DNA of 53,807 nucleotides from IMG/VR virus record IMGVR_UViG_2718217709_000003; one strand, given 5' to 3'. Under the pieces are notes generated by a model. It saw nothing but the letters and a program-made list of their open reading frames with translations, had not been told where the DNA came from and made no database searches. Position 1 is the stretch's first letter. Each line of letters opens with the position of its first letter. The stretch comes from a virus. Lineage: Duplodnaviria > Heunggongvirae > Uroviricota > Caudoviricetes. Of the stretch, positions 17,267 to 50,553 are shown piece after piece. The position numbers and the translations under genes were made by a program.

Positions 17267-17614
17267 GCGTCAATACGGTGCTCCGTTGACGCTTACTTTA
17301 ATCCGTTTTCTGAGCTTAGATTTTTCTGTTCCTACCCAGACCGTGGATTTGGAATTCATTTTTTGTCAGGTCAATGCTAATCGTTAAAACGGCCATAACG
17401 CACCTCCACTGGAAGGTTTATCAGTAATATCCTACCGTTGCTTCATGGTCGGGGCGTCCATTCCATTATTATCGGTTTTCCTTTCTGTTTATAAATGAAA
17501 ACGCCAGCTGTATTCAGGCTGGCGTCAGGGGAAATGTGATGCGCCGCGCGATAAATGCACTCTATCTTGTGCGATAAATGGCATCCACGCGGCGTTTCAT
17601 TATTTGAAAAAGAA

Positions 17615-18186
17615 TTACATTTCAGGTTGCGTTATGACAGTCCCAACAGGGTGGTAGCGGTAGATCGTTGACAGTCCAATATCATAGATAATTGCCAGCC
17701 GCTTTCTGTCATACCCTTTCTGGAGCAATCTTGCGATCTGCTCATGCTGCTCCTTCGTCAGTTTCGGGCGACGTCCTCCAACTCTCCCTTGTGCTCGCGC
17801 AGCAGCCAGTCCTGCCAGCGTGCGCTCAACTATCAGTTCACGCTCCATTTCTGCCAGTGCACCCATCATATGAAAAAAGAACCTTCCCATCGGAGTGCTG
17901 GTATCGATTGAATCCGTCAGACTGCGAAAATTGACACCTTTTGCGCGTAGCTCTTCTGTGAGAGCAATGAGGTGTTTCATTCTTCTACCCAACCGATCCA
18001 GCTTCCAGACCACCAATGTATCCCCTCTTTTAAGGCACTTTAAAGCGCGTTTCAGGCCTGGTCGTTCCGACTTGGTTCCGCTCATTTTGTCCTCAAAAAT
18101 CTGTTCACATCCTGCGCACATTAATGCATTGCGTTGCAAATCTGTGTTTTGGTCATTTGTTGACACACGTATGTAGCCAATCAGCA
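17615..18186 (-). CDS. Serine DNA invertase, Gin/Pin/Cin/Hin family (190 aa)
   Basis: MLIGYIRVSTNDQNTDLQRNALMCAGCEQIFEDKMSGTKSERPGLKRAL...LDRLGR... with a C-terminal HTH; start taken at the ATG at 18186, which has an upstream SD. Confidence 0.9.
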
Positions 18187-18241
18187 TTAAAAATACTCCC
18201 TTTTGAGTGGTTAAAGTACTGAGATAATGTGGGGAGGATTT

Positions 18242-18267
18242 GAGAGATAAACGTTGGTTTGGGGGAA
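18242..18267. other. Candidate invertase crossover site 1 (gix/hix-like, 26 bp)
   Basis: GAGAGATAAACG-TT-GGTTTGGGGGAA: half-sites resemble Hin-family sites; the right half-site is identical in all three sites. Confidence 0.5.
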
Positions 18268-18735
18268 GGCTCGGCGCTGCCCGTTGGTGTACCTGTTCCG
18301 TGGCCCACTGCCACACCGCCAGCAGGCTGGTTACAGTGCAACGGAGCTACGTTCACCAAAGAACAATATCCTGTTCTGGCCAGAGTCTACCCGACCCTCC
18401 GTCTTCCCGATTTGCGCGGTGAGTTTATCCGTGGATGGGATGACGGACGAAAGATTGACACCGGGCGTGCCCTGCTAAGCAGCCAGAGCGGAATGATTGA
18501 GAAACACCGTCATATTGTTGTTGCCAATGATGGTTACGACACAAAAGATGAATGGGAACTGGCTGCGATTTTCAAAAAAACATACACACAAGGACGAGGA
18601 CTTGATGCCACAAATACAGGAGGGAGTCTGACCCCATCACCAACACTTCATTCGCGAGGGAGTATCGGTAATACTGGCGGGAGGGAAACCCGTCCACGAA
18701 ATATTGCCTTTAACTACATTGTCAGGGCGGCCTAA
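18259..18735 (+). CDS. Alternative tail-fibre C-terminal cassette B (promoterless, TTG/Leu first codon; about 158 aa)
   Basis: Begins LGEGSALPVGVPVPWPTATPPAGWLQCNGATFTKEQYPVLARVYPTLRLPDLRGEFIRGWDDGR, homologous to the collar-domain segment of the fibre gene on the opposite strand; ends ...RPRNIAFNYIVRAA*. Confidence 0.6.
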   Translation: MGEGSALPVGVPVPWPTATPPAGWLQCNGATFTKEQYPVLARVYPTLRLPDLRGEFIRGWDDGRKIDTGRALLSSQSGMIEKHRHIVVANDGYDTKDEWELAAIFKKTYTQGRGLDATNTGGSLTPSPTLHSRGSIGNTGGRETRPRNIAFNYIVRAA

Positions 18736-18752
18736 ACGTTGGTTTGGGGGAA
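18727..18752. other. Candidate invertase crossover site 2
   Basis: GCGGCCTAAACG-TT-GGTTTGGGGGAA, in direct orientation relative to site 1. Confidence 0.5.
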
Positions 18753-19205
18753 GGCTCGGCGCTGCCCGTTGGTGTACCTGTTCCGTGGCCCACTGCCACA
18801 CCGCCAGCAGGCTGGTTACAGTGCAACGGAGCTACGTTCACCAAAGAACAATATCCTGTTCTGGCCAGAGTCTACCCGACCCTCCGTCTTCCCGATTTGC
18901 GCGGTGAGTTTATCCGTGGATGGGACGGTGGTCGCAAGGTTGATACCGGGCGTACGGTACTTTCATTTCAGGAAGGGACTATCGTATCCGGTTTTGATGA
19001 TAATAATACCGGAGATATCAGTTCGCTCGGCTCTACACAATACGGATTTGGTGACGCTTTAACCTCTAATCAACTGGGGGTCATAAATGGCAAAAAGTGG
19101 ATATTTGATGCATCCTCTAAAGGTGCACAAAGATATGACTGGTGGGCTTATGTATCAGCTCGCCCCCGCAATATCGCATTTAACTATATCGTGAGGGCGG
19201 CGTGA
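18744..19205 (+). CDS. Alternative tail-fibre C-terminal cassette C (promoterless; about 153 aa)
   Basis: The first ~190 nt are a near-perfect direct repeat of 18250-18440; the distal half diverges; ends ...RPRNIAFNYIVRAA*. Confidence 0.6.
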   Translation: MGEGSALPVGVPVPWPTATPPAGWLQCNGATFTKEQYPVLARVYPTLRLPDLRGEFIRGWDGGRKVDTGRTVLSFQEGTIVSGFDDNNTGDISSLGSTQYGFGDALTSNQLGVINGKKWIFDASSKGAQRYDWWAYVSARPRNIAFNYIVRAA

Positions 19206-19211
19206 TACCGT

Positions 19212-48483: not shown

Positions 48484-48925
48484 ACAACGTCTTATCCAGC
48501 TCATTCATATTGCCCGTAATGAACTGGGTATGGATGAAGACACCTACCGCCAGATGTTACAGGGGCTGACCGGTAAAGCCTCAACCAAAGGAATGGATAC
48601 CACACAACTAAACTGCGTGCTGGAATCCATGAAAAGGAAAGGCTTTCGCGTTAAGCCTGCCGGAAAAGCCAGCTCCGGTTTACCGCTGGATAACCATCCG
48701 CAGTCCAGGAAAATCCGTGCGCTATGGCTTGAAATGGCTGCTGCCGGCATTGTTCGTGACCGTTCAGAAAATGCATTAGCGCGGTGGATCAAGCGGGAAA
48801 CGGGCATCAGCGCCCTGCGCTGGCTCAGTACTGAACAGGCAAGCAGTGTTATTGAGAAACTGAAGAAGTGGCAGCGCAGAGCTGCGGGAGTCAAACATGA
48901 GCGACCTGAATCAGTTTCGAAGTAA
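48473..48925 (+). CDS. GemA-like protein (Mu gp16 family, about 150 aa)
   Basis: MMTKQRLIQLIHIARNELGMDEDTYRQMLQGLTGK... resembles Mu GemA; SD AAGGAG 5 nt upstream. Confidence 0.7.
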   Translation: MMTKQRLIQLIHIARNELGMDEDTYRQMLQGLTGKASTKGMDTTQLNCVLESMKRKGFRVKPAGKASSGLPLDNHPQSRKIRALWLEMAAAGIVRDRSENALARWIKRETGISALRWLSTEQASSVIEKLKKWQRRAAGVKHERPESVSK

Positions 48926-49295
48926 AGGGCCGGAACTCCTGGTGGAGCTGGCACAGCATACCTCTGAGACCGTTCGCGAGATTATTGATATTGAGCCCGC
49001 AATTGCCGACCAGATTGGTCAGGCCGTCGCGAACCGAATGATGCAGGTCTGGGGCGGGCAAAACGTTTATTTCCCGATGGGCATGGTATGGAAGGTCAGT
49101 CAGCGCGACCGGGAAATCTTCAGGGAGTTTAACGGACGCAACCACCACGAACTGGCCCGCAAGTTTGGTGTTTCGCTTCAGTGGGTCTACAGCGTGGTTA
49201 AGCGGGTCAGAAAAGAAGAACTGGATCGGATGCAGGGCAGGTTGTTTGATGAAGATCTGCCAGAGGAGACGAAAGACGTTAACAAATCCAGATAA
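48897..49295 (+). CDS. Mor/C-family middle/late transcription activator (132 aa)
   Basis: C-terminal HTH ...DREIFREFNGRNHHELARKFGVSLQWVYSVVKRVR typical of the Mor family. Confidence 0.75.
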   Translation: MSDLNQFRSKGPELLVELAQHTSETVREIIDIEPAIADQIGQAVANRMMQVWGGQNVYFPMGMVWKVSQRDREIFREFNGRNHHELARKFGVSLQWVYSVVKRVRKEELDRMQGRLFDEDLPEETKDVNKSR

Positions 49296-49340
49296 TTCCT
49301 GCTTGTTAAAGTCCTTTCAAAAATCTCCTTATTGTATAAA

Positions 49341-49371
49341 AGCACGGTAGACCCCTTACCGTGCTTTTTTT
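49341..49371 (+). terminator. Rho-independent terminator after the mor-like gene
   Basis: agcacggta-gacccct-taccgtgct stem followed by ttttttt. Confidence 0.65.
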
Positions 49372-49409
49372 ATGCTCTCTCTTTAGTATTCAGGATGCAG
49401 GGAGAAAAT

Positions 49410-50042
49410 ATGTTTGACGTTTCGTTGTTAAATCTGCCATGGGCAACACTGGTGACCCTGACCAGTGGCTATATTGGGTATTTTATTGCGAATGTGGGAC
49501 TGAAGGATCACCACAAGCCCATTGAGGTGACTTTTTCTTCGCTGATTTTTGGCCTGACAGCAATGATGGCTTACCAGGCTGTTATGTGGGCAGGTCTGAA
49601 TGCCTGGCTGGCAACACCACCAGCACTTCTGTGTGCCGTTACATGCGGTGCGTGGTGGCGCAGGTACGGTCGCAAATGGATGTACAGATTACTGTGGAAT
49701 AATGATATTTCATGGTCTGACGATACCAGCTCAGCATGGCAGGCAATGTTTGATCAAACAGGCTTCAGCGTTACCGAGGTCAGAGTGATTCTTCGCGATG
49801 GTTCCGGTATGATGTCACGGCTGCCAGGGAACTTTGAAGAGTGGCCTAACGGTCCGTTTACCCTGGGGAATAAAGGCGATATGGTTCTTTACGTCACGCA
49901 CAGCAGCCCTTCAGGCAGTAACGAATGGGAAGAGTATAAAGGCGTGGTTGATAAGTACTGGGGAGCTCTGGCAACCTATATTCCAGCAGATCAGATTGCC
50001 AGAGTGGAGATCAGGCGCGTTCGTGCAACGAACGATGAATGA
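49410..50042 (+). CDS. Membrane protein of unknown function (about 211 aa) at the prophage edge
   Basis: Three predicted N-terminal TM helices followed by a soluble Trp-rich domain; SD AGGGAG upstream; alternative start at 49395. Confidence 0.55.
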   Translation: MFDVSLLNLPWATLVTLTSGYIGYFIANVGLKDHHKPIEVTFSSLIFGLTAMMAYQAVMWAGLNAWLATPPALLCAVTCGAWWRRYGRKWMYRLLWNNDISWSDDTSSAWQAMFDQTGFSVTEVRVILRDGSGMMSRLPGNFEEWPNGPFTLGNKGDMVLYVTHSSPSGSNEWEEYKGVVDKYWGALATYIPADQIARVEIRRVRATNDE

Positions 50043-50553
50043 TGTTTATTTTTTCCCTGGGGCAGGGGCTGCCGGCATAGTGGTTTTATTGGCAGAGGAA
50101 GACGATTCTCCTTTTCTACCGGAATCGCGCTCGAACGTCACGATGTGCTTGCTTTTGGGCTTTTCTGAGTAATCCAGGCTATCATGCTTATTGTTTTGAG
50201 TAGTCATTGGAATCATCCTTTTTGTTGCGGGTCATGTTTCAGCAAACTCGATTCTAAGTTGCCAGGAAGGATGATTTCAATGCCCGACTTATCTATCGTA
50301 TAGCGGAAAAGAATTTCAGTTCTGTTCACCAGAACCCATGTTAACCCACTCCAATTCGTTATTTATCTCACGGATCCCCCTTCATTTATCTCATGTCTGA
50401 TCAGAAATGAAGCCTGTTGAGTGAGATTCACCGGTTCTGGTGCAGAAGCTGCAGATGGCGCAGGGTAAGGACATCTTCTCTTGCCTGCTTAATACAGGAC
50501 AACAGTGCTGTTTCTGTGGTTAATGGCACTATACCCTGCATCACTGCATTGTC

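Follow-up and report, generated by a model that had tools for sequence, protein, structure and literature searches.

We analyzed a 53,807-nt stretch of DNA, IMG/VR virus record IMGVR_UViG_2718217709_000003 (the whole of which we call the window), that carries a myovirus prophage of Escherichia coli. We put a probability of roughly 0.93 on the reading that this element is a BcepMu-like transposable prophage that was inserted by transposition and then grounded by a single internal deletion. The prophage entered a DUF957 gene of the CP4-44 island, adjoining yeeW, by DDE transposition, with a 6-bp target duplication. Later, one illegitimate-recombination event over a 4-bp microhomology cost it 5,499 bp of the early operon. 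The insertion probably came before the deletion because the ends and the target duplication are intact. The transposase is missing because this one deletion lies at its position in relatives that are 96 to 99.6% identical.

Prophage ends and the 5,499-bp deletion

Comparison with the prophage of AHB7 set the boundaries at 17537 (TGAT...) and 50403 (...ATCA), a length of 32,867 bp. The first-pass annotation of this DNA, made from the sequence alone, had drawn a Mu-like myovirus prophage from 17300 to 50500; a myovirus prophage is there, with the bounds measured here. The features that define the ends and the deletion are as follows.

17531-17536, left copy of the target-site duplication, GAAATG
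17537-17585, + strand, left terminus, TGAT and then two GCGATAAATG repeats (putative transposase-binding sites)
47886-48278, + strand, chimeric open reading frame (ORF) that spans the deletion junction
48047-48050, deletion junction, 4-bp microhomology GATG
50355-50403, - strand, right terminus, reverse complement TGATCAGACATGAGATAAATG...GTGAGATAAATAA
50404-50409, right copy of the target-site duplication, GAAATG

Two GNGATAAAT motifs lie at about positions 12 to 20 and 34 to 43 of both ends, as at both BcepMu ends; the BcepMu layout of TGA followed by GNGATAWWT motifs at about positions 12 to 20 and 34 to 43 is thus matched. Joining the flanks with a single GAAATG restores an uninterrupted DUF957 gene adjoining yeeW at 100% identity (466 of 466 nt); over 3,800 genomes of E. 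coli have a match to 80% or more of this 466-nt reconstructed empty site. It had been proposed to define the prophage ends and to search for 5-bp target duplications; the ends and a duplication were found, and its size is 6 bp, not 5. Related prophages occupy other sites. In AHB7, a 37,526-bp copy interrupts dgcI, a diguanylate cyclase gene, with the duplication GCGATG, and in ABU 83972, a 37,701-bp copy interrupts rstB with the duplication ACAAAT. Three sites that each have their own 6-bp duplication are the mark of a DDE transposable phage.

In the relatives, the match to the early region of the window falls into two blocks with extra DNA between them. Aligned with AHB7 (99.2 to 99.9% identity), window position 48050 corresponds to position 10036 of the AHB7 sequence L002, and the match resumes at window position 48047 with L002 position 15532. 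The deletion is thus 5,499 bp and forms a single gap of the early region relative to the AHB7 prophage. The block missing from the window is present in AHB7, PhiKM, and ABU 83972. It begins with the 3' half of a 105-amino-acid (aa) gene and contains a 589-aa DDE transposase (Pfam rve, E = 1e-8, no other Pfam match; 67 to 68% identity to BcepMu gp09) and a 388-aa ExeA-family AAA+ ATPase (AAA_22, E = 4e-20; 58% identity to BcepMu gp08). BcepMu gp08 is annotated "DNA transposition protein," and the ExeA-like ATPase is the functional analogue of MuB. Also deleted were an HI_1482-family gene, Gam (Pfam Mu Gam, E = 8e-41), two small genes, a MazG-like pyrophosphatase gene, and a DUF2786 gene (Pfam).

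Because the deletion joined the start of the 105-aa gene to the next surviving gene, the early operon now contains a chimeric ORF, in which the first 54 codons of the 105-aa gene are fused in frame to a complete 76-aa gene. Its residues 1 to 64 match positions 1 to 65 (of 105) of PHROG 5446, and residues 55 to 129 match positions 1 to 75 (of 76) of PHROG 3681. These ∼54 codons, from the small gene upstream of the transposase, are the sole survivor of the deleted block. The other genes of the early operon are listed here, with the repressor that faces it.

45956-46312, - strand, cI/Xre-type helix-turn-helix (HTH) repressor (Pfam HTH_3, E = 5e-15, and Phage_CI_repr), at the position of BcepMu gp17
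46406-46594, + strand, small HTH protein, first early gene, at the Ner/Cro position; homologue of BcepMu gp16 (46% identity), PHROG 925
46641-46955, + strand, early regulator, homologue of BcepMu gp12
46966-47886, + strand, DUF3102 protein (Pfam), homologue of BcepMu gp10
48268-48483, + strand, small ORF, distal early gene
48434-48925 (or, from a later start, 48476-48925), + strand, GemA (Pfam, E = 1e-40; 45% identity to BcepMu gp02)
48897-49295, + strand, Mor (Pfam, E = 1e-43; 56% identity to BcepMu gp01)

As had been observed, only four ORFs separate the Ner-like gene from gemA: these are the gp12 homologue, the DUF3102 gene, the chimeric ORF, and the small distal ORF. In the gene orders of AHB7 and BcepMu, the gp12 and gp10 homologues stand directly upstream of the transposase. 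The reported lack of a transposase or integrase was also borne out, as family searches (Pfam and PHROG) of all ORFs between 43.5 and 50.2 kb gave none. MuA and MuB had no credible tblastn match in the window (best E = 3.5 and 0.16, respectively), nor did the BcepMu-type transposase and ExeA ATPase when the whole window was searched (best E > 0.1). No pieces of the BcepMu-type genes for transposase, ATPase, Gam, or DUF2786 were found elsewhere in the window. A degraded Mu-type transposase was considered and is excluded at the tblastn sensitivity used on the window. The only recombinase in the prophage is a 190-aa Gin-type invertase at 17615 to 18187.

Of the readings first offered for this block, that of a defective element was the right one, since the 5,499-bp deletion took the transposase and the ATPase. 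Besides the deletion, everything is intact: the ends, the repressor and the Cro/Ner-like switch, GemA, Mor, the lysis, head, and tail genes, and the invertase. RefSeq annotates no pseudogenes in the prophage-matching regions of the near-identical strain 254D-1.

Gene content and the BcepMu group

We translated the 49 annotated genes of BcepMu (NC_005882) and compared them with the window by tblastn. Colinear homologues were present for 33 of the 49 proteins, at 30 to 76% identity and with E values down to 0. The shared order runs through Mor and GemA, gp10, gp12, and gp16, the lysogeny switch, and the holin, SLT endolysin, Rz, gp25, and gp26 genes. It continues with TerS, TerL, portal, F, and G, the protease and major capsid protein, gp35 to gp38, and the sheath, tube, and tape measure, and it ends with U, X, D, V, W, J, I, and the tail fibre. 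The same region is 99% identical to Escherichia phage PhiKM (PQ738613), which GenBank places in the genus Bcepmuvirus. The late genes and the inversion region are as follows.

17615-18187, - strand, Gin-type serine DNA invertase, 190 aa (PHROG 125, "DNA invertase," E = 1e-94; RefSeq "recombinase family protein")
18251-20346, invertible tail-fibre segment, two alternative C-terminal cassettes, with 218- to 229-nt inverted repeats relative to the 3' part of the tail-fibre gene
19212-19826, - strand, tail-fibre assembly gene
19826-21763, - strand, tail fibre
21760-32432, - strand, P2-like tail and baseplate module (I, J, W, V, D, X, U, tape measure, tail assembly, tube, sheath)
32422-41055, - strand, Mu-like head and packaging module, including the small proteins gp35 to gp38; colinear homologues of BcepMu gp27 to gp38 (42 to 62% identity)
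33933-34886, - strand, major capsid protein
34901-36016, - strand, protease/scaffold
36231-36689, - strand, G
36692-37540, - strand, F
37494-38987, - strand, portal
38987-40510, - strand, TerL
40507-41055, - strand, TerS
41052-43416, - strand, lysis cassette and two small genes (homologues of gp25 and gp26)
41686-42297, - strand, Rz-like protein
42326-43063, - strand, SLT endolysin
43066-43416, - strand, holin

TerL is 62% identical to BcepMu gp28 and 98% identical to its PhiKM counterpart. The names in the tail module come from RefSeq, and its colinear tblastn matches to BcepMu gp39 to gp51 range from 30 to 76% identity; the N terminus of the tail fibre is 50% identical to BcepMu gp52.

The ORF map and the annotation agree that the early operon (+) and the late operon (-) diverge from the region between 43.4 and 46.4 kb, as had been described. 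This layout had also been taken as a possible sign of a rearranged prophage, which the comparison does not support: the divergent arrangement is the published order of BcepMu-like phages, and 33 genes are colinear with BcepMu. The description of BcepMu by Summer et al. (2004) is used here as summarised in PMC2771037 and PMC2628397. In that account, the early genes, including the transposase, occupy one strand, and the lysis, head, and P2-like tail genes occupy the other, with lysogeny control at the interface (PMC2771037). BcepMu has TG...CA termini and a transposase that belongs to the Tn552/IS1604 rve family rather than with MuA (PMC2771037; PMC2628397). It had been suggested that the gene order might prove typical of a characterised group of integrase-encoding phages; the order is indeed typical of a known group, but the BcepMu group encodes a transposase.

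The window thus has the divergent two-cluster genome, the colinear homologues, the TG...CA termini with their motifs, and the varied insertion sites with a short duplication that characterise BcepMu-like phages. It lacks the rve DDE transposase (gp09) and the adjacent ExeA-like AAA+ ATPase (gp08). Comparison with the intact relatives shows that this absence is secondary, which makes the element a defective member of the group by descent. By the stricter definition of Muvirus, GemA and a Mor/C-family protein are present, whereas MuA and MuB and the co-directional early-middle-late order are absent. We conclude from these genome comparisons that the element belongs to the BcepMu (Bcepmuvirus) group, which is already known, and that it is an ordinary prophage of E. 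coli rather than a new kind of phage.

PhiKM and the equivalent prophages of AHB7, ABU 83972, and about 630 other complete genomes are 96 to 99.6% identical in nucleotide sequence to the window across the early, lysis, head, and tail regions that they have in common with it. Relatives of the PhiKM/AHB7/ABU 83972 type share with the window the gene order, the termini, and the invertase and tail-fibre system. The window differs from them by the missing 5,499 bp (the transposase, the ExeA-like ATPase, gam, and five other genes), by one extra alternative tail-fibre cassette, and by the number of repeats in the tail-fibre and tape-measure genes. Like the window, BcepMu has two divergent clusters with the switch at their interface, an early cluster that ends in Mor and GemA, an SLT endolysin cassette, a Mu-like head, a P2-like tail, and TG...CA ends with GATAWWT repeats. 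Unlike BcepMu, the window has lost gp08 and gp09 through deletion, carries a Dam methylase among its accessory genes, has no homologue of the BcepMu acyltransferase gp53, and possesses a Gin-type inversion system.

Mu (NC_000929) shares with the window the GemA and Mor regulators, the Mu-type terminase, portal, and F/G head genes, and the Gin-type invertible tail-fibre segment. Replication by transposition would be common to Mu and the intact relatives of the window. In contrast to Mu, the window has nothing resembling MuA, MuB, the c repressor of Mu, or Ner, and it has divergent operons, P2-like tail genes, a transposase of the rve/Tn552 type in its group, and a 6-bp target duplication. The target duplication of Mu is 5 bp. 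The block had been described as having Mu-type GemA, Mor, Ner-like, and repressor genes. This description holds for GemA and Mor, which are assigned by Pfam, but not for the other two, which are not Mu-like; Mu Ner and Mu c had no similarity to the window by tblastn. The protein encoded at 46406 to 46594 has a sub-threshold match to the Ner family HTH_35 (E = 0.003); the gene is Ner-like only by position, and by sequence it encodes a generic small HTH protein.

In the invertible segment, the arms at 18251 to 18468 and 18736 to 18964 pair with 20118 to 20346 at 87% complementarity. Two cassettes lie in tandem in the window, and there is one each in AHB7 and ABU 83972. A tail-fibre inversion system is reported to be absent from BcepMu (PMC2771037), so the Gin system, which is of the Mu/P1 type, was acquired in the E. 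coli branch. The tail-fibre gene also contains in-frame tandem repeats (20513 to 21529), with a 300-bp unit present in 2.7 copies with 99% matches and a further 168-bp unit, and the tape-measure gene contains an in-frame repeat of two copies of a 261-bp unit (27259 to 27793). Copy numbers of the repeats in both genes vary between the window and its relatives.

The remaining genes of the prophage lie between the two operons and near the right end.

43547-45839, accessory genes between the operons: 247 aa (+), 134 aa (-), 71 aa (+), and Dam methylase (+)
49410-50207, end-proximal genes of unknown function: 210 aa (+) and 53 aa (-)

The Dam methylase is a D12 methylase by Pfam (E = 9e-29). The 247-, 134-, and 71-aa genes belong to PHROGs of unknown function, and the 247-aa protein has a weak P-loop match. 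Together with the end-proximal genes, these make five conserved phage genes (43547 to 44884 and 49410 to 50207; 247, 134, 71, 210, and 53 aa) with no Pfam or PADLOC assignment. The operon interface and the neighbourhood of the right end are typical positions for moron, or accessory, genes. Among the accessory genes at both positions, a PADLOC search for defence systems returned only the Dam methylase, which matched methyltransferase models.

Distribution of the deleted form and alternative explanations

To determine how widespread the deleted form is, we searched 5,426 complete E. coli genomes with a 301-bp junction probe. The junction was contiguous in only 2 genomes, 254D-1 and 360D-1, with one match in each, and its two halves were found at separate places in another 621. 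The transposase and ATPase genes had matches in 640 genomes (628 at no less than 80% query coverage). The prophage family is therefore common, present in ∼12% of complete E. coli genomes, and the transposase is normally present. Because the junction occurs in so few genomes, the transposase-less form is a private, recent variant of a single lineage. No intact progenitor was found at the same chromosomal site in the genome collection, and a query running from the prophage into its flank was covered only by 254D-1 and 360D-1.

The window itself is E. coli chromosome. Strains 254D-1 and 360D-1 both come from diarrhoeal stool in Nicaragua. The right-hand 10.8 kb of the window is 100% identical to both. 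The remainder is 99.997 to 100% identical to 254D-1, with one exception: 254D-1 has an ISEc23 (IS66-family) insertion sequence (IS) that separates gene G (virion morphogenesis) from the gene for the head protease, at a point corresponding to window positions 35992 to 35999. The window lacks ISEc23, which suggests that it represents a sister genome or an earlier state of the 254D-1 lineage. An IS element in the head module of 254D-1 fits the start of decay and not domestication.

Some points weigh against a prophage grounded by deletion after its insertion. In principle, the deleted genome could have been packaged and then inserted with the transposase of a helper. It is also important to note that 254D-1 and 360D-1 come from one study in one country and are probably one clone, so they offer weak independent confirmation of the assembly. 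Moreover, the inactivity of this copy is predicted from its sequence, and the intact E. coli relatives are presumed active from their duplications, their varied sites, and their homology to BcepMu.

The alternative that fares best, although we consider it very improbable, is a helper-dependent "mini" element, which would persist or spread in the manner of mini-Mu, using its functional ends together with a transposase and an ATPase borrowed from a BcepMu-like phage that is co-resident or superinfecting. The two termini and the repeated motifs within them are undamaged, and helpers would be at hand in the intact related prophages of about 12% of complete E. coli genomes. However, a spreading element is difficult to reconcile with a junction confined to a single site and a single lineage, in 2 of 5,426 genomes. 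The junction query matched one place per genome, so neither genome has a second copy with these deletion-flanking segments, and the resident repressor would probably block a homoimmune helper.

It had also been proposed that the element is a domesticated particle producer, resembling a gene transfer agent or a tailocin, in which the host has kept the structural and lysis genes under Mor control after the loss of mobility. The head, tail, and lysis genes, Mor, and GemA are all intact, and by analogy with Mu, a headful packaged in place from the shortened prophage would include ∼5.5 kb of additional host DNA. Domestication should leave a conserved locus without mobility genes, yet the deleted form is found in only two genomes. 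The 99 to 100% identity to ordinary intact prophages leaves no time for selection, and the head module of the sister strain 254D-1 already contains an IS66-family element, which looks like decay. We found no support for this proposal and regard it as highly unlikely.

Less credible again is an assembly artefact, in which the 5.5-kb block would be real but dropped in assembly. Only two database genomes have the junction, both from the same project. Nevertheless, the junction has no collapsible repeat (only 4 bp of microhomology) and gives a clean in-frame fusion. The window and two assemblies agree on it, and one of these assemblies has an additional IS insertion absent from the window.

Finally, a distinct non-transposing Mu-like lineage that integrates by the invertase or by an outside integrase, another of the earlier proposals, was suggested by the lack of a transposase in the window and by the serine recombinase at 17615 to 18187, but it deserves hardly any credence given the TGAT...ATCA ends of the TG...CA type, the 6-bp duplication and perfect empty site, the near-identical relatives at other loci that have a DDE transposase at the deleted position, the AHB7 alignment of the deletion, which refutes it, the Gin type of the 190-aa recombinase and its place beside the inverted tail-fibre repeats, and the origin of the tyrosine integrase at 1 to ∼730 in a P22-like remnant, where IS100 cuts it off.

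That remnant is a separate, decayed P22-like prophage that occupies positions 1 to 11600 of the window and includes a HumD fragment in addition to the following.

1 to ~730, truncated tyrosine integrase, cut by IS100
812-1834, istA of IS100
1831-2613, istB of IS100
3234-4286, partial ejection protein
4286-6124, full gp16-type ejection protein
7092-7595, two Arc-family (Mnt/Arc-type) genes
7664-8566, antirepressor Ant
8667-11168, tailspike
about 11969-13197, IS2, the right boundary of the remnant

The tyrosine integrase at the start of the window was rejected as the integrase of the BcepMu-like prophage. It lies ∼17 kb away, beyond IS100, the rest of the P22-like remnant, IS2, and the host genes dacD to yeeX, and because the transposon ends are exact, it has no role in the prophage, which requires no integrase from beyond its borders. 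A tRNA scan of the whole window for an integrase-type attachment site found zero tRNA genes.

Just left of the prophage, a 164-bp fragment (17138 to 17301) is 96% identical to the end of an IS66-family element, and the region is annotated as a "transposase domain-containing protein" (yoeD-like). This fragment belongs to the old CP4-44 remnant and lies outside the prophage. The right flank (50429 to 53807) is a CP4-44-type island with the 3' DUF957 remnant, yeeW, cbtA, cbeA, a DUF987 gene, a JAB-domain gene, an antirestriction gene, and a DUF932 gene; cbtA is frameshifted in the RefSeq annotation of a sequence identical to this flank.

Consequences of the deletion

The prophage would be unable to transpose alone. 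In a phage of this type, no transposition would mean no replication and no productive burst, so the element would be stranded at its site. Mu prophages defective in A or B do not replicate and give essentially no phage yield. Derepression of the stranded prophage could lead at most to early and late expression from a single unreplicated copy, and by analogy with Mu no productive burst would follow. Virion DNA with random host DNA at both ends, a trait that accompanies replicative transposition in BcepMu-like phages, is not expected from the deleted copy. The repressor of the prophage probably still protects its host against related phages, and the Dam methylase is probably still expressed. With both ends undamaged, the element could in principle be mobilised by transposase provided in trans from a superinfecting relative.

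With Mor, the lysis, head, and tail genes, and the Mu-type headful terminase all intact, the stranded prophage might still be inducible; it might then package itself in place as an accidental locus-specific transducing particle or be mobilised by a superinfecting relative as a natural "mini-BcepMu." We consider this very improbable. If true, ∼5.5 kb more of the neighbouring chromosome would be packaged, from the yeeX-yeeA-sbmC-dacD side or the cbtA/cbeA side of CP4-44.

Other prophages grounded by deletion, such as cryptic prophages and laboratory Mu A/B deletion or mini-Mu derivatives, are likewise stranded and keep their ends, immunity, and many late genes. Compared to these, the loss in the window is very recent, and the remaining genome is still intact.

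The finding has little import beyond correct annotation. For enterobacteria, a Mu-like phage that lacks MuA and MuB and has an odd gene order should first be compared with the BcepMu group, whose transposase is usually labelled "integrase catalytic domain" or "DDE-type integrase" and whose MuB analogue is labelled "ExeA family protein." The junction at 48047 to 48050 is a specific typing marker for the 254D-1/360D-1 lineage. The element also provides a precisely mapped example of stranding, in which the mobility module was lost through one microhomology-mediated deletion and the ends, immunity, and particle genes stayed in place.

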